The notes beneath the pieces are model-generated. The model made no database searches. It had not been told where the DNA came from and saw only the letters and a program-made list of their open reading frames with translations. This document shows positions 2,950 to 24,825 of a DNA stretch of 26,163 nt, piece by piece (within the stretch, counting starts at the first letter, position 1; each line of letters starts with the position of its first letter). The position numbers and the translations under genes are program-made. The DNA is taken from IMG/VR virus record IMGVR_UViG_2541047960_000003; one strand, 5' to 3'. This DNA is from a virus. Its lineage: Duplodnaviria; Heunggongvirae; Uroviricota; Caudoviricetes.

Positions 2950-4100
2950 TTTTTCTTCTCCTTAATCACCGTCGATGTACTGCCATCCGGGTGATAAACC
3001 GTGAGTTTCTGAGTTTTTTGTTTTTTCCCTCTTGTGACTGGCCCCCGTGCCACTTCCAGCTCTGTGGTGTAGCCGCTGTTACGGTCAAACGCATGGCGGG
3101 CAGTGGTTATGAGCCATGGCCCGGATAACTGCCCAAAACCCACCAGTTCAATTTTGTTGCCTGCTGTCAGTTGAGGTGTTCCCGTCAGCGTCAGGGAGCC
3201 GTTCTGCTGGTATTCGTTATGTCTGGCCAGTGCTGAATCCGCTTTAATCCGGGCACTGTCCGGGTCGTTGACGCGGCTGTTAACTTTAAGTGAGTCAGCG
3301 CTGGTAACCTTACCACCTTTGAGCTTTTTGTCGCTTTCACGGGTACCACCATCAGCTTCGTAGACGATCAGTTTTTTACTGCTGCTTTTCTGGTGTTTTA
3401 CCTTTGCAGATTTATAGACCCGGTTGATGGTGTCACGCAGGGAAAAGCGGGCCACATCCTGCAGTTTTAACTGCCTGACCGGCTCCTGACTGCGCAGTGT
3501 GGCCAGATGAGAAAAAATCAGCTGGTCACTGACCACTTTCACTGCATAACCATACTCGCTGGCCAGCCGGCGCAGAAAACCCACGTCGGTTTCAGCATAC
3601 TGGGTCACCCGGTCGATTCTGATGGACTCAATGCTGCCCACCAGTTTCAGCCGGTGCTTTCTGGCAATCCGCCCCGCAACAGCTGCCAGCGTGGTGTTCT
3701 CAAAACCACGACTGGTTTTAGTCCGCAGGGCACTGTTAACCGAGGTGGCCACCCCACGGATAGAAACAACGGAAGCGGGCGAACTCACTTCGATCTCGTC
3801 TATAGAGAACGTACCGCAGGACAGCAGCTTCTCGCCCTGATAGCCCATTTTCAGCGTCAGCGTGTCACCCTTGCCCGGATACCATTTATCCAGCCAGCGG
3901 CCATCGGTGTCGTCCAGCTCCACCTCAATGGTATCGGACTCATTTTTGATGTTATCGCTCCAGGTCACACGGGTGACATAAGGCGCGATATCAGAGGTGA
4001 TGTTTTTCTGCAGATACCACAGAGTGAACACCGGTGTCAGCACATCGCTGACGCCGGTTAACGCTGATGTGACTTGCGCAGTGCTGTTTATCTCAGCCAT
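2946..4100 (-). CDS. tail protein D-like (P2 late control D family)
   Basis: 384-aa ORF with Lys-rich C-terminus, downstream of X- and U-like genes; P2 order T-U-X-D. Confidence 0.7.
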   Translation of the reverse strand: MAEINSTAQVTSALTGVSDVLTPVFTLWYLQKNITSDIAPYVTRVTWSDNIKNESDTIEVELDDTDGRWLDKWYPGKGDTLTLKMGYQGEKLLSCGTFSIDEIEVSSPASVVSIRGVATSVNSALRTKTSRGFENTTLAAVAGRIARKHRLKLVGSIESIRIDRVTQYAETDVGFLRRLASEYGYAVKVVSDQLIFSHLATLRSQEPVRQLKLQDVARFSLRDTINRVYKSAKVKHQKSSSKKLIVYEADGGTRESDKKLKGGKVTSADSLKVNSRVNDPDSARIKADSALARHNEYQQNGSLTLTGTPQLTAGNKIELVGFGQLSGPWLITTARHAFDRNSGYTTELEVARGPVTRGKKQKTQKLTVYHPDGSTSTVIKEKKK

Positions 4101-4303
4101 GGGGCAATATCCTCTTCTGTACGGGCTTCTTCAGCCTCAATCACCGGGATCAGTAACAACAGCCCGGAGGGCAGCACCGGCGTGATGGTCACGTGCGGAT
4201 TGGCGGCAATAATCCGGGGATAGCCCAGCGGGTCACCGTAGTACTGCCATGCCAGCGAATCCCAGCGCTCTCCGTCACGGGTAACATGTTCAAGAAACAT
4301 CAC
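4088..4303 (-). CDS. tail protein X-like (small LysM-like tail protein)
   Basis: 71-aa ORF with W..YYG...ANP motif typical of P2 gpX-like proteins; overlaps both neighbours. Confidence 0.55.
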   Translation of the reverse strand: MMFLEHVTRDGERWDSLAWQYYGDPLGYPRIIAANPHVTITPVLPSGLLLLIPVIEAEEARTEEDIAPWLR

Positions 4304-5184
4304 ACACTCCTCGTCAGTATTCTGGCGGCCATTGCACTTAATCCCGGAGACATGCGGTTGAATGCTGTGCCGGCGGCGTTAAGCTGCCCGGAAACGGTAT
4401 CCAGAGCACCTGCAATATTTCTTTTGTCCACACCACTCAGCGCAGACTGTGCCTGCTGTACATACGTGGCTGCTTCGCTGGCTGTTCTGGCCAGACTGAT
4501 GGCATCGGGCATGGATTCAGAGAGTGCGTTAAACGCCGGAACACTTTTCCCCAGAGCCCCGGAGATATTACCCAGTCCGCTCATCAGCCCCGGCACACGG
4601 GTCAGTGCGACAACGGGGTTATCCTTCATTTTCTGTGTCACCCGAACGGCGCTGATAGTGGTCTGGAGTACAGACTGCGCCTGTTTCGCATAGTTGACGC
4701 CGTTGCGGATGAACTGCGCCACCCCTGAAGGTGAAGGAATGGCACCGGAGACCGCCCCGACACCCGGGAGCTTCGTGCGTATTGCCGGTGGTTGCAGAGG
4801 ATTTTTCGGGTCACCGGTGTATTCCCGGAGAGACACGGTGGCACTGACAGCCAGCACGTTGCCGGTACTGTCAGTCTGCTCGCTGGTTGCAGTCACATCG
4901 GTAATCACGAACCAGCCGCGATAGTCACCGTTGCCGAAGACCAGCGCCAGTGCCTGATGGGCTTTCATGGCTGTTCGCAGTCTCGCCAGCTCCACATCGG
5001 GTACACAATAATGCTGATGGAAAACCAGAGTTATCTGGATTTCGTCCAGCCTGTCGCCGACGAACTGCAGGCCAGGCTTACCCCCGATGCGGGCATGCTC
5101 CGCATAATCGACGCCGAACGTGGCCTCGAAGCCGTCCCAGTAGGTAATCAGCTCAAACTCAATATCACCCAGTACGGCAAACAT
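4300..5184 (-). CDS. tail protein U-like, with long Ser/Ala-rich C-terminal extension
   Basis: 294-aa ORF directly after the tape measure gene (1-nt overlap at 5184); assigned by synteny and N-terminal domain feel. Confidence 0.5.
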   Translation of the reverse strand: MFAVLGDIEFELITYWDGFEATFGVDYAEHARIGGKPGLQFVGDRLDEIQITLVFHQHYCVPDVELARLRTAMKAHQALALVFGNGDYRGWFVITDVTATSEQTDSTGNVLAVSATVSLREYTGDPKNPLQPPAIRTKLPGVGAVSGAIPSPSGVAQFIRNGVNYAKQAQSVLQTTISAVRVTQKMKDNPVVALTRVPGLMSGLGNISGALGKSVPAFNALSESMPDAISLARTASEAATYVQQAQSALSGVDKRNIAGALDTVSGQLNAAGTAFNRMSPGLSAMAARILTRSV

Positions 5185-17516: not shown

Positions 17517-19111
17517 CAGAATCCCTCCAGCATACGGGCCGCCTGACGACGACGGCGTGAGCTTGCCTTCACCGGCCCTTTGTTAATTTCACGGCTGGCG
17601 AAATACGCCAGCGCCAGTGCGATGGCTGAATCCCCGTGGCGTTTACCACCGTCAGCCTTTGCTTTTGAGCGTTGCTCCGGTACGCGGGGGACACCGTTCA
17701 CCACCTGAACGGCCCGCAGGTCATCCAGTGTGTCTTCATCCTTTGGTAAGTCCACCAGGTTACCGTCTTCCAGTGCAGCTTTGACCGGAGGCATATGCTC
17801 CCGGTACCAGCCTTCGGTTGGCATCACCTGCTGAACCCGGCTGGAGCCGTAGCGCTGCATGGCGTATTCAGCCAGATAGGCACCATTACCACGGGCATCA
17901 AACGCTGCACCCAGCAGACCGGGCAGGCCATCCATCAGATACCAGGTGATTTGCTCCTGCTGTCTGAACGGCACGTTACGCAGCTCCAGTACGAATGGCA
18001 CGCGTCGTACCAGGTTCTTCTCCTGCAGCAGGGGATAGTCCACCGACAAATCACCGCTACGGCCAAAGTCGCGCCCCAGGAAAGAGCGGGCATCAGTGGG
18101 GAGTGCCTCCAGCAAGGGTTTCAGATACTCATCAAGCCAGTCCTGCGTCTCGCGGAAGCGAACCTCATCAGACAGCAGTTCATAACCTTCCTTGCAGGTC
18201 AGACGCAATACCGGCGTATCAGCGGACATGCGGGACTCTATCAGGGCACGGGACAGCCAGGCACCGCCACCGTTGGCCGGAATACAGTCAAGCTCTTCGG
18301 ATGCGCCGGCACCGTAGAATTTGTACACCGATGCCATCCAGGCCTGCTCGGATGCCTCCGACCATTCCTTCCCGGTGCGCAGACAGACGCGCCGGAACAG
18401 CCCCTCAGATACGGCTTCCCGGAAAGTGATGCGATGTATGCTGCCTCCCTGACGTCCGGCACGGATATCCCCGATAAGCGTATTGAACGGATTGTCGTCA
18501 CCGTCATGGGTGGAGATAACGCGTACCTTTCCCCCCCAGATAAGCATCGCCAGCGCCGCTTTCAGCAGTTCGTCCAGTTGCTCATGGAACGCCGCTTCGT
18601 CGATAACAATAATACCCTGACGGCCACGCAGGTTAGACGGGCGGCTGGAGAGCGCAACAATACGAAAGCCGGAGTCAGGAAATTTGATGGTGTAAGTCTT
18701 GATGTGTTTGTCGTCGTCGTCCTCTTCCCAGAATCCTTCTTCAATTTCACTGGCCGCATAGTTGAATGCCCGTGCCCACATCGCACACGCCTGAATGTAT
18801 TCGACGGTCATGTCCTGGTTATAAGCGATGTAATACACATTCATCCCGCCTGCTGGCGCAGAAGAGGCGGCGGTCAGTACGTTATCGGATGCCTCAGCCC
18901 ATGTAATACCGGTACGACGGCTCTTTTCTATCACCTTAAGCGGAGAGGTGTCTGCCACCCAGCGCTGCTGGTAAGGCAACAGAACGGGAGGGGCATCCAG
19001 CGCCGAGGTATCAGGCAAAACGGGAGCAAGGTTATTCCTCCCGTCCATGGGACTCATCCCTTCGGGGCCGCCGCCAGCGGCGTTTAAAATCACTCCGGAT
19101 GATTTTGTCAT
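17516..19111 (-). CDS. terminase large subunit (Mu gp28-like)
   Basis: 531-aa ORF preceding the portal gene; acidic EEDDDDK patch and overall size typical of a large terminase. Confidence 0.8.
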   Translation of the reverse strand: MTKSSGVILNAAGGGPEGMSPMDGRNNLAPVLPDTSALDAPPVLLPYQQRWVADTSPLKVIEKSRRTGITWAEASDNVLTAASSAPAGGMNVYYIAYNQDMTVEYIQACAMWARAFNYAASEIEEGFWEEDDDDKHIKTYTIKFPDSGFRIVALSSRPSNLRGRQGIIVIDEAAFHEQLDELLKAALAMLIWGGKVRVISTHDGDDNPFNTLIGDIRAGRQGGSIHRITFREAVSEGLFRRVCLRTGKEWSEASEQAWMASVYKFYGAGASEELDCIPANGGGAWLSRALIESRMSADTPVLRLTCKEGYELLSDEVRFRETQDWLDEYLKPLLEALPTDARSFLGRDFGRSGDLSVDYPLLQEKNLVRRVPFVLELRNVPFRQQEQITWYLMDGLPGLLGAAFDARGNGAYLAEYAMQRYGSSRVQQVMPTEGWYREHMPPVKAALEDGNLVDLPKDEDTLDDLRAVQVVNGVPRVPEQRSKAKADGGKRHGDSAIALALAYFASREINKGPVKASSRRRRQAARMLEGF

Positions 19112-19203
19112 GTGGCAATCCCCAGAATCTCGCGACGAAGCGCCTGTACTGCGTCGCTTGACAGTCCCCCCTTACGGGCAATTTTCTCGGCGTTGCTGGC
19201 TGC

Positions 19204-19653
19204 CTACTGCGCTCTGGCCCGTACTTCAGACTGGAACTTTTTGAGGTTGACGGACGCGCGGGACAGCGTAGCCACATTCTTCGCCACCTTCGACAGCAGG
19301 GCCACGCGTTCTTTAGGATCGACTTCGCCTTCTTCCGCCTCCTGCAACTGGACAATACTCTCGAACAGCTCGGTCTGAATAAGGGCTATCACAGCCTCCG
19401 AACGCGCATCCTGATCGTCTGCTGCGCCTTCGGTCAGCATGCGGGCCGCTTCTGTTGCCGCACGGATAGCACCATAGCGGCGCTCAATCTTCTGTCCATA
19501 GCGATGGATAGCGGATTTGCTGATGACGTACCCCCGCTCACGCAGCAGGGACTCCAGCTCGTTATACCCGCTGAAGCCGGATTCAGTCAGCGCCCGTTCA
19601 AGCCAGCGGCGCACGTCTTCCGGCAGCTTTTCTATTGTGCTGCGTCTGGCCAT
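19204..19653 (-). CDS. Mu gp27-like protein (putative small terminase / DNA-binding)
   Basis: 149-aa ORF upstream of the large terminase with an N-terminal HTH-like segment (SGYNELESLLRERGYVISKSAIHRYG). Confidence 0.5.
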   Translation of the reverse strand: MARRSTIEKLPEDVRRWLERALTESGFSGYNELESLLRERGYVISKSAIHRYGQKIERRYGAIRAATEAARMLTEGAADDQDARSEAVIALIQTELFESIVQLQEAEEGEVDPKERVALLSKVAKNVATLSRASVNLKKFQSEVRARAQ

Positions 19654-22144: not shown

Positions 22145-22621
22145 ATGACGCACACACTGAATCCGGTCATCACTGTCACTGTGTCCGGTCCTGTGGGCAG
22201 CGGTAAAAGTTACGTACTGGCGCGGATAGAAGAGATGGTGAAACAGGAACTCGGAAACAGCGTCATTGTCGATGCTGCTGACGTGGAGAATGAGCGCCGT
22301 ATGAATGGCGAAGATCTGACGACCTGGCAGAAGCCACGGGGTGGCACAGTGATCAGGCTAGAGGAATACACGGGACAGGGCCTGTTGTCATACGGCGAGG
22401 AGCGTATCTGTCGGACGAATGAGCTGCTGGATGTTATATGCCCCACGGGCCGGCAACCCTGGATACTGCCCGATGCACTGCATGCCACCATTGCGGCACT
22501 GATGACAGTTTACGATCAGGAGCTGCTCATGAAGGAGTTACGTAAACTCACCGGTCAGCCAACAGAATGTTGTTCGTCTCCGAAGTACGGCAAACAGGAA
22601 AACGCCCCGGATAATCCTTAA
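22145..22621 (+). CDS. small P-loop (Walker A) protein, possible small kinase-fold protein
   Basis: 158-aa ORF; SD GAGGAG 8 nt before ATG; VITVTVSGPVGSGKSYV Walker A at residues 15-22, then VIVDAAD acidic motif about 20 residues later. Confidence 0.5.
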   Translation: MTHTLNPVITVTVSGPVGSGKSYVLARIEEMVKQELGNSVIVDAADVENERRMNGEDLTTWQKPRGGTVIRLEEYTGQGLLSYGEERICRTNELLDVICPTGRQPWILPDALHATIAALMTVYDQELLMKELRKLTGQPTECCSSPKYGKQENAPDNP

Positions 22622-22640
22622 GATACCTCCTGAACAGAAA

Positions 22641-22656
22641 CAGCCCTGAAGGGCTG
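22641..22656 (-). terminator. candidate intrinsic terminator ending the repressor-operon transcript
   Basis: CAGCCC-TGAA-GGGCTG hairpin 2 nt after the stop of the 196-aa gene; on minus-strand RNA it is followed by UUUCUGUU; on plus-strand RNA it is followed by A-rich sequence, so it is unidirectional. Confidence 0.4.
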
Positions 22657-22658
22657 CA

Positions 22659-23249
22659 CTAAAAAAAGAAGTGTATTATTGCCCAAACAGCTATAACGAT
22701 GATTCCCAGCCCAAGAGCCGATTCTAACTTATCTTTGGCAGTCATTTTTACTGTTGTAGCGGGCGCAGGTAAGTCTTGCTGCTGTGGATTTTCTGTTAGT
22801 TGTTTACGAGAAGAAACATCGCCCCTATTAGTTTGCTTCATGTTGATTACAGATGCGTTATGGGCATTATCAGCAGCAATTGACTGAAGTTTTACAAAAG
22901 TTTTTGAATCTGTTTTAGCCAGAAGTAACCTATTTCCCGTAAACATTGCCTTAAAAGTGATAGTTTTTTTCGTCTTGTCCGCCGCACCAAGCAAACCTCC
23001 AATGACCAACCCTGCACCACCAAAGATTAATCCACCAAGCAAACCTGCGCCTGCCGCCTTACCTATACGGCTTTCCTCTTCACTATCCGCAAGTTCAATC
23101 GATAAAAGCTCTTCTTTCAGATTTAATACAATATTTTCAGGAAAGCCTTGTTTTGGTTTTTTGGCAAACACGATGGTACCGAACCCCATGCTTGCCCACC
23201 CTTTAGGAAAACTTCCTGCGATAACCTGAATCCCTGCCATGTTCATCAC
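22659..23249 (-). CDS. glycine-zipper membrane protein of unknown function
   Basis: ~193-196-aa ORF (GTG/ATG start cluster at 23238-23249 after AAAGGTG); GxxxG-rich segment AAGAGLLGGLIFGGAGLVIGGLLGAA and C-terminal TM LGLGIIVIAVWAIIHFFF; AT-rich codon usage. Confidence 0.5.
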   Translation of the reverse strand: MMNMAGIQVIAGSFPKGWASMGFGTIVFAKKPKQGFPENIVLNLKEELLSIELADSEEESRIGKAAGAGLLGGLIFGGAGLVIGGLLGAADKTKKTITFKAMFTGNRLLLAKTDSKTFVKLQSIAADNAHNASVINMKQTNRGDVSSRKQLTENPQQQDLPAPATTVKMTAKDKLESALGLGIIVIAVWAIIHFFF

Positions 23250-23330: not shown

Positions 23331-24317
23331 CTATTTAAGAATAAAACGGTATTTACTGTCAGGAGTGCTTTGCTGATCAAGTAGCAGTGAACGACATGGA
23401 GCAGTCAAAACCCGAGCATAACTACCATCAGGGCTTATGTTAATGTAACAAACCTTGCCCTTAACACTATAATTTTCGGGGACGGATGCCTTTGCTGATA
23501 CAGTAAATTTAAGGGTATGCCAGCCCGTTTTTTGCTTGTAGCTTGAAACCGAATGGAAATCATCTGAGTACTTATTTAACCCTGGAAACATGCTGCGCAG
23601 TGCGGGGATGGAATCTTCTATTATTTTATCGTTGGTTTTAATGTTAAAAACGCTGGTTTCAGTAGAAGCTACTGCTTTGGCATTTCCCCATTTACCAGCG
23701 AACACAATCATTCCCACGAAAAATATTGCTACAAGAACTAACACTCCCCCCAACACTACTACATGAGGCTTCCGGCTTCTGGTTGGTACAGTTGCGACTG
23801 ATTTTGCACCGCTTTCCGATGGAGGTGATAGAGTTTTACTCTCATCACGAATATTCAGCAGATCATCAAAATAACCAAACACAGCCTGCAACTGCTCTTT
23901 GTCTAGGCCTTTAAGATGGGTTGTACCGAAATGCTTCAGACAGTATCTGTCACGGTCAAGACGATACCCAGGGTCAGTAAGCGCCATTATTTTGCTGACC
24001 AGAAGATTACAGTCCTTCATATTCTGGATCTGTTGTGCATATCTCTGAAGGATCTCAACCGCACCATGATAATCAGCCGCAGTCATTTCATTAACTGTTT
24101 TGGTATTAAGTTTCGTGTGGATCGTCATCCATAGCTCGCGCTTACTTTCCCCCAGATCAACCAATTCATCCATCAATCTGTGTAAATCGCGTTTTTGCAG
24201 CAACGAAATTGGTTGCTGGGCCGAAGGAAGTATGTCAGCAGAATAGTTATGAATGGTAACATCACCGCTGACAACGTTACCCACATCCCCGTTAACTGTT
24301 TGCTTCTCTTTACTCAT
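23331..24317 (-). CDS. single-pass membrane protein of unknown function, translationally coupled to the repressor
   Basis: 328-aa ORF; ATG at 24315-24317 overlaps repressor stop (ATGA); ~190-aa N-terminal domain, one TM (HVVVLGGVLVLVAIFFVGMIVFAG), ~115-aa C-terminal domain. Confidence 0.55.
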   Translation of the reverse strand: MSKEKQTVNGDVGNVVSGDVTIHNYSADILPSAQQPISLLQKRDLHRLMDELVDLGESKRELWMTIHTKLNTKTVNEMTAADYHGAVEILQRYAQQIQNMKDCNLLVSKIMALTDPGYRLDRDRYCLKHFGTTHLKGLDKEQLQAVFGYFDDLLNIRDESKTLSPPSESGAKSVATVPTRSRKPHVVVLGGVLVLVAIFFVGMIVFAGKWGNAKAVASTETSVFNIKTNDKIIEDSIPALRSMFPGLNKYSDDFHSVSSYKQKTGWHTLKFTVSAKASVPENYSVKGKVCYINISPDGSYARVLTAPCRSLLLDQQSTPDSKYRFILK

Positions 24318-24775
24318 CTTCTCTTGGTATTTTTGTTCATTATTCCACCTGTTCCTATGGTTACGTTACCTTTGATAACATTCCCCAGAACATCTCCATG
24401 AATAACCTGTTCCGCCCGTTCTCTGGAGGAGCCAGTAGTCAAGGCCGACAAAACTGAACCTTTGACCTGTAATGGTGCCTGCCGGTAGTGCTGCAGTAAC
24501 TCCATTTCATCACGTGATAAAGTTATACCTGATGACTCCCCGGTAAGAATGAACTGTACATTGGCCCCAATTCTTGCAAAGGCTGCAAGTAACTCACCTC
24601 CGGGAACAGCAACCCCTCGTTCATATTTCCCCCACATTTCTCTTGAAACGCCACAAAGGGCTGCTACTTCAGCCTGCTTGAGTGATAACCGCGAACGCTC
24701 AGCTTTGAACCGCGACGCGCAAAGAGAATCAAAATTCACATAAACCTCATTGGCAATGAGAACAATAGTTCTCAT
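24314..24775 (-). CDS. XRE-family HTH transcriptional repressor (putative immunity repressor)
   Basis: 153-aa ORF with classic HTH_XRE segment (LSLKQAEVAALCGVSREMWGKYERG); divergent from the early operon across a 50-bp gap. Confidence 0.65.
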   Translation of the reverse strand: MRTIVLIANEVYVNFDSLCASRFKAERSRLSLKQAEVAALCGVSREMWGKYERGVAVPGGELLAAFARIGANVQFILTGESSGITLSRDEMELLQHYRQAPLQVKGSVLSALTTGSSRERAEQVIHGDVLGNVIKGNVTIGTGGIMNKNTKRR

Positions 24776-24825
24776 AATCTATCACATATAAAACAAACAT
24801 CATTGCATCAACAAAGGAGACAACA
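24776..24825. promoter_or_regulatory. divergent promoter/operator region between repressor and early operon
   Basis: 50-bp AT-rich gap containing TCACATATA, ATTGCA and the SD AAAGGAGA for the Ner-like gene. Confidence 0.4.

Follow-up and report, generated by a model that had tools for sequence, protein, structure and literature searches.

What is the role of a membrane protein whose gene directly follows, and overlaps, the repressor gene of a prophage? The question is raised by a stretch of 26,163 nucleotides (IMG/VR virus record IMGVR_UViG_2541047960_000003, here called the window), which is part of a transposable (Mu-like) Escherichia coli prophage. The protein has 328 residues and is encoded on the minus strand at 23331..24317, immediately behind the XRE-family prophage repressor gene (24314..24775, minus strand; 153 residues as annotated; HTH_31/HTH_3). 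Our comparison of this pair with its relatives shows that the conserved, predicted membrane protein has a linear motif in common with the repressor of the same putative mRNA, and that the two copies co-evolve. We consider it quite probable that the two disordered segments bind each other and, with only a little more confidence than doubt, we read the 328-residue protein as the cognate membrane partner of the repressor, which would control how much repressor is available.

Judged by its reading frame and its relatives, the gene is real and conserved. It begins with ATG, ends with the stop codon at 23331-23333 and matches phrog_10002 over its full length. The first-pass annotation had proposed both this reading frame and its overlap with the repressor gene, and direct reading confirms the two of them: within the ATGA at 24314-24317 the TGA of the repressor (24314-24316) overlaps the ATG of the 328-residue gene (24315-24317). 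Full-length homologues with 44-82% identity were found in four genera, Salmonella, Morganella, Yersinia and Serratia, all of them with intact reading frames, and the same overlap of 4 nucleotides with the repressor gene recurs in the Serratia, Yersinia and Salmonella loci. The proposal that both proteins are made from one mRNA is consistent with our terminator scan of the strand, which found no terminator-like site between the repressor gene and the 328-residue gene. Since the sole terminator-like hairpin of the minus strand (22640-22657) lies directly 3' of a third gene (22659..23249, minus strand), which encodes a protein of 193-196 residues, the three genes look like one operon.

The evidence that carries our reading is the motif itself. 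In the membrane protein it occupies residues 2-22 (SKEKQTVNGDVGNVVSGDVTI; 24252..24314, minus strand), with the core GDVGNVVSGDVTI at 24252-24290. In the repressor it occupies residues 117-140 (SRERAEQVIHGDVLGNVIKGNVTI; 24356..24427, minus strand), with the core GDVLGNVIKGNVTI at 24356-24397, after which comes the basic end GTGGIMNKNTKRR. The repressor ends in …SRERAEQVIHGDVLGNVIKGNVTIGTGGIMNKNTKRR and the membrane protein starts with MSKEKQTVNGDVGNVVSGDVTIHNY…; the peptides SRERAEQVIHGDVLGNVIKGNVTIGTGG and SKEKQTVNGDVGNVVSGDVTIHNY represent the motif pair of the window. When the last 40 residues of the repressor were aligned with the first 45 of the partner, the local score was 59 over a stretch of 22-24 residues, as compared with a shuffle mean of 19.9 (standard deviation 4.1; z=9.5); not one of the 20,000 shuffles scored as high. 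The same alignment is the best local one between the two full-length proteins, and six-frame translation of the window yields these two copies and no third.

Both copies lie outside the predicted globular domains. The AlphaFold2 (AF2) model of the repressor has a helix-turn-helix (HTH) region at residues 15-78, helices at 88-114 and a tail at 115-153, for which the predicted local distance difference test score (pLDDT) is mostly below 50; in the partner model, built with 18 homologues, residues 1-30 are disordered as well (pLDDT<50). This segment is the best-kept part of the partner family: residues 6-23 show a mean identity of 93%, as against 75% in the helical domain, 64% in the periplasmic domain and 21-34% in the linkers and the transmembrane (TM) helix; G10, G13, N14, V15, V16, S17, G18, V20 and I22 are invariant. 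On the repressor side, the motif is kept in repressors of only 51-56% overall identity. The window motif can be divided into three [DN]-V-x-x-G pentapeptide-like units, a pattern that would be compatible with a beta-solenoid rung.

Other sources of this likeness were ruled out. At identical residues of the two copies the same codon is used in 4 of 10 cases in the window, and in 6 of 12 and 3 of 9 cases in two related loci (L020 and L008). Because the codons differ, a direct repeat of DNA or a gene conversion does not account for the motif, and selection acts at the protein level, on the peptides. An artefact of low complexity is dismissed by the composition-preserving shuffles and by the permutation of cognate and non-cognate pairs that is described below. 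A programmed frameshift fusing the two reading frames does not agree with the intergenic spacing, which varies from -4 to +35 nucleotides among the loci with a motif pair.

Is such pairing peculiar to this prophage? We compared the genomic neighbourhoods of many repressor homologues, with the partner starts in metagenomic loci chosen by rule. The homologues have the HTH in common and carry different G/N-rich tails; about 15 tail motif types were distinguished in transposable prophages across Proteobacteria, and in each of them the downstream protein, mostly a membrane-anchored one, starts with the matching motif. Variants of the module were seen in Salmonella, Klebsiella, Serratia, Yersinia, Dickeya/Pectobacterium, Pseudomonas, Actinobacillus/Mannheimia-like, Francisella-like and Acidovorax sequences. 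The repressor tail and the partner N-terminus are, respectively, VRVSGRNNRVAGHDYHE and IQVKGKGNRVAGRDYHE in Klebsiella, GNRVAGRDFNENK and QNRVAGRDFNENK in Izhakiella, FHGNVSGQFAGNQIVN and FNGTASGQFSARDIIN in Dickeya, FKDVGQYIHGSVNQSGVTFNV and FHGGVGQVAEGDINNYGININL in Pseudomonas, and NSGMGAIQIG and NSGSGAVQMG in Acidovorax (L039). Five more loci pair FNGNIDGQVSAENIYNI with FNHTVGQVAANNIYNI (L078), HRFALGDYHE with HRIALGDYYE (L090), VHGGQFSTGTINNY with IHGGQFGQVINNY (L105), IGKVGQIVQADNIET with IGKVGQLIQTENIGT (L115) and TIQVGASVTGGAV with VVQVGGSVHGNV (L123). Further matches of tail and head are NRVAGHDYHE / NRVAGRDYHE, VHGGQF..INNY / IHGGQF..INNY, IGKVGQIVQADNI / IGKVGQLIQTENI and FNGN.DGQVSAENIYNI / FNHTVGQVAANNIYNI.

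Across 60 non-redundant pairs the mean score was 38.3 for cognate and 21.7 for non-cognate combinations (permutation p<=1e-5), and within the 16 pairs of the 'AGRD' type it was 56.6 and 47.8, respectively (p~8e-5). This cognate excess implies co-evolution of tail and head, because independent drift of paralogous segments would not raise the likeness of cognate pairs. An unbiased scan, in which every open reading frame N-terminus in six frames of each ~5-kb locus was compared with the repressor tail, agrees: the immediate downstream gene was the best match in 32 of the 43 loci with any score of at least 35, and in 3 more loci the best match was the same downstream gene read from an alternative start.

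One could argue that the motif is a common tag and that both copies serve as recognition sites for something else, be it FtsH, ClpXP, Lon, a chaperone or another phage protein, so that the two proteins are jointly degraded or handled and do not bind each other. The copies are terminal and disordered, as degrons usually are; the stability of the Mu repressor is controlled by ClpXP through its C-terminal tail, and FtsH begins on disordered cytoplasmic ends of membrane proteins. However, host proteases are conserved, yet the motif types differ within one host group, and repressors of E. coli and Enterobacterales carry both GDVLGNVIKGNVTI and GNRVAGRDY tails. The copies also track each other within a type, as expected of a specific pair and not of a host tag, and the window lacks a third copy. 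We hold the tag to be a very improbable explanation.

The proteins that bear the matching head are of several kinds: an Flk_N-like domain with a tail anchor, a 120-residue Zn-ribbon protein with two TM segments, two-TM proteins of 140-170 residues, the bitopic protein of the window and one soluble protein. The motif is found at the extreme N-terminus in every partner, and in all membrane forms this N-terminus should, by hydropathy, be cytoplasmic, on the same side as the repressor. Where the repressor lacks a G/N tail, the next gene is an unrelated one. Paralogues which have the same HTH but a LexA-like S24 autopeptidase domain carry no tail, and their downstream genes have no motif. As judged from these comparisons, related transposable prophages join one and the same DNA-binding module to alternative C-terminal modules; the tail-less paralogues have the S24 domain, therefore the tail and its partner occupy the position of a known inactivation module. 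S24 paralogues at L126 4001-4690 and L127 3759-4475 keep the HTH CGVSREMWGKYERG….

A different mode of pairing may be in use in Lonsdalea and Pseudomonas variants (L014-L018, L024, L025, L027, L030, L076, L087, L089 and L096). Their repressors have a helical end (…VLKLVINR/H) and no G/N tail, and the two-TM protein encoded downstream starts with a helix (…ELVAKLS.RLTEE…), its G/N motif IKIKGDHGNINLG coming only after that helix. Similarity of tail and head was not detected in these variants.

How is the window protein placed in the membrane? It has a single strong hydrophobic segment (Kyte-Doolittle 19-residue maximum 3.05), predicted by hydropathy as a TM helix at residues 186-208 (VVVLGGVLVLVAIFFVGMIVFAG; 23694..23762, minus strand). 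The topology was derived from hydropathy, the positive-inside rule and the homologues. An N-in orientation is favoured, because lysine and arginine are more frequent before the helix (4 in the 15 preceding residues) than after it (2), and because sequence inspection revealed no N-terminal signal sequence. The first-pass annotation had predicted a cytoplasmic domain, one TM helix and a periplasmic domain with cysteines, and this holds in our analysis, with ~185 residues before the helix and ~120 after it. In the AF2 model the disordered start is followed by an all-helical part at residues ~31-160 (pLDDT>90; helices 39-160), a stretch of low confidence at 161-220 that contains the TM helix and an alpha/beta domain at 221-328 (pLDDT>90).

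The first-pass annotation had also named a remote-homology search as a check, and it proved informative: an exhaustive profile search resolved the 328-residue protein into a fusion of two separable modules, an Flk_N-like helical domain and a periplasmic module. The shared motif, the Flk homology and the modular make-up are points beyond what had been noticed at first. The cytoplasmic all-helical domain (residues ~31-160; 23838..24227, minus strand) is homologous to the N-terminal domain of Flk. The NCBIfam model NF007987 (Flk) matches residues 19-147 with E=2.9e-12 and 46.6 bits, the cut-off of 353 bits not being reached, and precomputed Pfam assignments place PF27202 (Flk_N) on homologues of the protein. 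Among representative proteins, about 65 with lengths of 165-290 residues contain the N-module; most of them have a hydrophobic terminal anchor and are of the tail-anchored type. The most distant profile matches (P0222-P0230) are bona fide Flk-like proteins, tail-anchored and 250-430 residues long, which start with MQPISNPGN…. The chromosomal flagellar regulator Flk and the N-module proteins of prophages may share an origin.

Flk (Fluke/RflH), which inhibits the type III secretion switch of flagella in Salmonella and E. coli, is a tail-anchored protein that maintains the early state of the flagellar export gate and, in a two-hybrid assay, interacts with FlhA-C (PMC13344023). The homologous helical domain and the tail-anchored architecture of the shorter phage relatives are points of likeness. 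The similarity to the Flk model and the Flk-like proteins at the far end of the profile search raise the question of whether the prophage protein is an Flk mimic that acts on the export gate of the host and alters motility or flagellin export of the lysogen. We find this scarcely credible, as the 46.6 bits are far below the family cut-off, the family goes with the repressor genes of transposable prophages and not with flagellar loci, and the same slot and motif are also used by partners without an Flk_N domain. Additionally, the window protein differs from Flk in its extra N-terminal motif, in the ~120 residues after the TM helix, owing to which it is not tail-anchored, and in the place of its gene in the immunity operon of a prophage.

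The second module, at residues ~221-328 (23334..23657, minus strand), is delimited by the homologues, the AF2 model and the profile search; it is an alpha/beta domain with two cysteines, C290 and C308, which are invariant in 18 homologues. By itself the module makes up proteins of 120-200 residues, mostly with a lipobox or signal anchor and with a conserved 'LPxIRxxxPGLDKY' stretch. Since these stand-alone homologues are lipoproteins or signal-anchored, they support a periplasmic location of the C-terminal domain. In a KP12-like transposable phage the homologue is a lipoprotein of 177 residues in the same slot, behind an unrelated repressor that is free of the tail motif. The primary idea of the first-pass annotation had been a sensor or exclusion protein; that a heteroimmune relative has a lipoprotein in this slot agrees with an origin of the periplasmic module as an exclusion gene or moron. 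The locus concerned (L048, Klebsiella phage KP12 clone KP12_2, 3540-4519) is filed under Vequintavirinae, yet its layout is that of the window prophage, and it has a transposase, a DUF3102-like gene and an IclR-type HTH. Its unrelated repressor has a coiled-coil end.

Could the whole protein then be a moron of lysogenic conversion or superinfection exclusion? It would act through its periplasmic module, for instance as an obstacle to DNA entry or by hiding a receptor; its expression from the repressor operon would be incidental, as with lambda rexAB or P22 sieA, and the motif would have no role towards the repressor. The slot after the repressor is variable in relatives (a methyltransferase, lipoproteins and other small genes occupy it), the module is widespread as small lipoproteins, and the KP12-like phage carries it behind a tail-less repressor. 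However, the N-terminal 22 residues, the best-conserved part of the protein, would be left unexplained, as would the co-variation of the tail in ~35 loci, whose partners differ in architecture and mostly lack a periplasmic domain. As an account of the protein in full this is quite unlikely, though it may additionally be true for the C-terminal module only.

Neither domain gave an informative fold match in PDB or in BFVD, the viral predicted structures. Beyond the Flk_N similarity no function emerged from Pfam, PHROGs (families of unknown function), PADLOC or NCBIfam; in PADLOC no defence system was matched by the 328-residue protein, the best hit being PDC-M19B with E=0.014 and no stretch passing alone.

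We return to the reading of the 328-residue protein as membrane partner of the repressor. The first-pass annotation had mentioned modulation of repressor activity as an alternative; the repeat of the tail motif and the co-variation give this specific, unexpected support. According to the mechanism that we propose, homotypic beta-strand pairing of tail and head would bring the repressor to the membrane protein, and the partner would set the amount of repressor that is free to hold the early promoter. Maintenance of lysogeny, induction or immunity could in this way be made to respond, without RecA, to the state of membrane or periplasm, in the mode of the co-transcribed anti-sigma factor RseA, by which sigma-E is kept at the membrane. 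The periplasmic module comes from a lipoprotein family and would be a sensing input or have a separate exclusion function; it is a candidate input and may equally be an independent exclusion function gained by fusion.

Several considerations make us favour control of repressor availability. The tail sits where the paralogues have their inactivation module; Flk, of the relatives the only one that has been characterised, is tethered to the membrane and holds another protein; the bitopic architecture and the operon position parallel those of rpoE-rseA; and the C-terminal copy belongs to the receiver in all paired-motif systems that are known. The likeness to anti-sigma systems of the rpoE-rseA type, and to the sequestration of Mlc by PtsG, consists in a predicted single-pass N-in protein encoded directly after the transcription factor that it is a candidate to bind, with its binding part at the cytoplasmic N-terminus and, at the C-terminus, a periplasmic domain able to receive a signal. 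In contrast to these systems, the target here is a repressor, so that sequestration would derepress, and the predicted binding involves a duplicated linear motif and not a folded anti-sigma domain; no anti-sigma (RseA_N/ZAS) domain was found in the 328-residue protein by Pfam, NCBIfam or fold comparison.

A number of points weigh against this reading. The pairing is deduced from co-variation only, and control could also run in the opposite direction, from the repressor to its partner. A gating signal has to be assumed, because a constitutive anti-repressor translated together with the repressor would defeat lysogeny. The periplasmic domain is a lipoprotein module in its own right and may play no part in sensing. 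The tail-bearing repressors of L029 and L032/33 have no matching neighbour, and in Microbulbifer (L026) the partner candidate is displaced to ~1.1 kb downstream of the repressor. The matching partner of Acidovorax (L039) has no TM segment, so anchoring to the membrane is not universal. In the Microbulbifer locus the displaced gene (4078-4302, plus strand) has the N-terminal motif IRGNHNRVAGRDIVYE, the repressor tail being GEGNRVSAQGDYYE, and an oppositely oriented gene for 178 residues is inserted between them.

Paired motifs of this kind are known from amyloid signalling, as in fungal HET-s/NWD2, bacterial Bell/NLR pairs of the BASS type and Bab/Agp (BASS11), the last being a paired-motif signalling system of an E. 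coli prophage (bioRxiv 10.1101/2024.11.07.622273). There, too, a motif of ~20-25 residues stands at the C-terminus of one protein and at the N-terminus of the product of the adjacent gene; the motifs lie in disordered regions outside globular domains, are rich in G, N, Q and V/I, occur in many specificities and have basic 'gatekeeper' ends. A phi-Q-phi-G core as in RHIM/BASS3 (G-phi-Q-phi-G) is found in L039 (GAIQIG/GAVQMG) and in L123 (TIQVG/VVQVG), not in the window pair, and some partners have two pseudo-repeats like HET-s. The differences are that the receiver here is a DNA-binding repressor and not a pore-forming death domain of the Bell/HeLo type, and that the emitter is a small, Flk_N-like, membrane-anchored protein and not an NLR/STAND or TPR sensor.

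By analogy with amyloid signalling, the membrane protein with its N-terminal motif would act as emitter, and the repressor, whose motif is C-terminal, as receiver; by clustering, the membrane protein could seed a cooperative beta-assembly in which repressor tails are captured. A stronger version, for which we have no more than tentative sympathy, takes the tail and the partner N-terminus as a functional amyloid or prion-like pair, in which a beta-solenoid-like assembly would template tails into an inactive polymer. If it were true, Mu-like prophages would possess an all-or-none, RecA-independent, membrane-triggered switch of induction (or immunity), orthogonal 'alleles' of the motif would prevent cross-talk of co-resident prophages, and paired amyloid-signalling motifs would for the first time be seen to govern a transcription factor, and for the first time a lysis-lysogeny switch.

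The same analogy can be turned round. In Bab/Agp the membrane-active protein is the executioner, and the 328-residue protein might likewise be a membrane-damaging effector of abortive infection or lysis timing, whose N-terminal motif is held inactive by the repressor tail in a guard- or antitoxin-like manner until loss or titration of the repressor sets it free. Type II toxin-antitoxin operons have this gene order and the same 4-bp ATGA overlap, the HTH of the repressor has weak matches to HipB/MqsA/PezA-type antitoxin models, many of the partners are small proteins with one or two TM segments, and the co-variation of tail and head supports a physical pairing. However, known amyloid-signalling effectors carry the motif at the C-terminus and sensors at the N-terminus, and the membrane protein here has the N-terminal copy. 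It resembles no toxin or defence family in Pfam, NCBIfam or PADLOC, its conserved cytoplasmic domain is like that of Flk, which points to binding or inhibition and not to a pore former, and an addiction module would be of no obvious use to an integrated transposable prophage. We regard an effector of this kind as unlikely.

The comparison with type II toxin-antitoxin systems having an XRE-type antitoxin (HipBA, MqsRA, PezAT) leads to the same distinction. The HTH gene comes first, the overlap is of 4 bp and the HTH protein has a disordered C-terminal tail in both, which in an XRE-type antitoxin neutralises the toxin of the next gene and here would contact the downstream product; in contrast to these systems, the downstream product here belongs to no toxin family, and the implied contact is homotypic, with the same motif on both sides. 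Hex of phage 434 (PMC3564112), RexA/RexB of lambda and the ImmR-ImmA pair of ICEBs1 are alike in that the protein is made from the mRNA of the repressor in the lysogen, and Hex and ImmA both act on repressor inactivation. Unlike the window protein, Hex, RexA/RexB and ImmA have no linear motif in common with their repressors, and none of them is homologous to it. A protease of the ImmA/IrrE type (COG2856) was ruled out for the 328-residue protein, which has no HEXXH in its sequence and no Pfam match to that family.

In the open-access literature we found no description of a motif shared by a repressor and a membrane protein, and phage repressors are not mentioned in the Bab/Agp preprint, the BASS paper or the 2026 review of amyloid switches. 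The components are each known (XRE repressor, Flk_N-like domain, paired-motif logic, membrane anti-regulators), while their combination appears to be new. It bears on a matter that is poorly understood, namely how Mu-like transposable prophages, which are generally not inducible by the SOS response, leave lysogeny: if a private peptide code links the repressor to a membrane protein, this would offer a concrete and testable route for an induction input. The paired-motif logic of NLR and cell-death systems would, if this is true, be extended to gene regulation. The module is present in ~2% of complete E. coli genomes, among them the extraintestinal pathogenic strains IAI39 and CE10. About 15 natural and apparently orthogonal peptide pairs of ~20 residues would be available for synthetic biology, and the enigmatic flagellar regulator Flk gains a large family of phage relatives.

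If the partner acts on the repressor, where might the repressor itself act? A promoter-like site found by promoter scan (24750..24778, plus strand) faces the divergent ner-like early gene. Between its -35 and -10 hexamers lies the perfect 6-4-6 palindrome GAGAACAATAGTTCTC (24758-24773), a candidate operator of which the window contains no other perfect copy. The palindrome falls within the first 12 codons of the repressor as annotated. Since many repressor homologues begin at MNFDSL, the true start may be the GTG at 24739, which would give a protein of 141 residues.

The immunity region is widely distributed as a unit. Its 2.8 kb are 100% identical in E. coli IAI39, CE10 and other chromosomes, and they are found at >=99% identity in 98 of 5426 complete E. 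coli genomes, being covered to at least 80% in 97. According to the annotation of IAI39, the operon is located between leftward late genes (holin, SLT lysin, head and tail genes) and rightward early genes (ner-like, IclR-type HTH, DUF3102, transposase, ExeA-type B protein, Gam and Mor). RefSeq lists the 328-residue protein of IAI39 as WP_000031883.1 ('hypothetical protein') and the product of the upstream gene as WP_001259268.1 ('helix-turn-helix domain-containing protein'), both annotated identically to the reading frames of the window.

The third gene of the putative operon belongs to phrog_12025, and its product has a glycine-zipper hydrophobic segment (GAGLLGGLIFGGAGLVIGGLLGAA) and a C-terminal TM segment; no match was obtained in Pfam, NCBIfam or PADLOC. 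The gene is not kept at this position in the Serratia, Yersinia and Salmonella relatives. When read from the RefSeq start, its product has the N-terminus MAGIQVIAG (phi-Q-phi).

Two further observations concern the surroundings of the operon. The DUF3486 (Mu gp27-like) gene at ~19108-19653 on the minus strand (L001 8509-9054) is a RefSeq pseudogene with an internal stop and is split in the window into two reading frames, 19204-19653 and 19032-19355; a packaging defect of the prophage may follow from this, even though the immunity operon is intact and conserved in many genomes. Between the repressor operon and the lysis genes, and convergent to the former, lies a gene at 22145-22621 (plus strand) for a P-loop protein of 158 residues (GPVGSGKS; 'ABC transporter ATPase', phrog_3787), which has weak AAA/KAP/zeta-toxin-like matches and may be another moron or defence gene.

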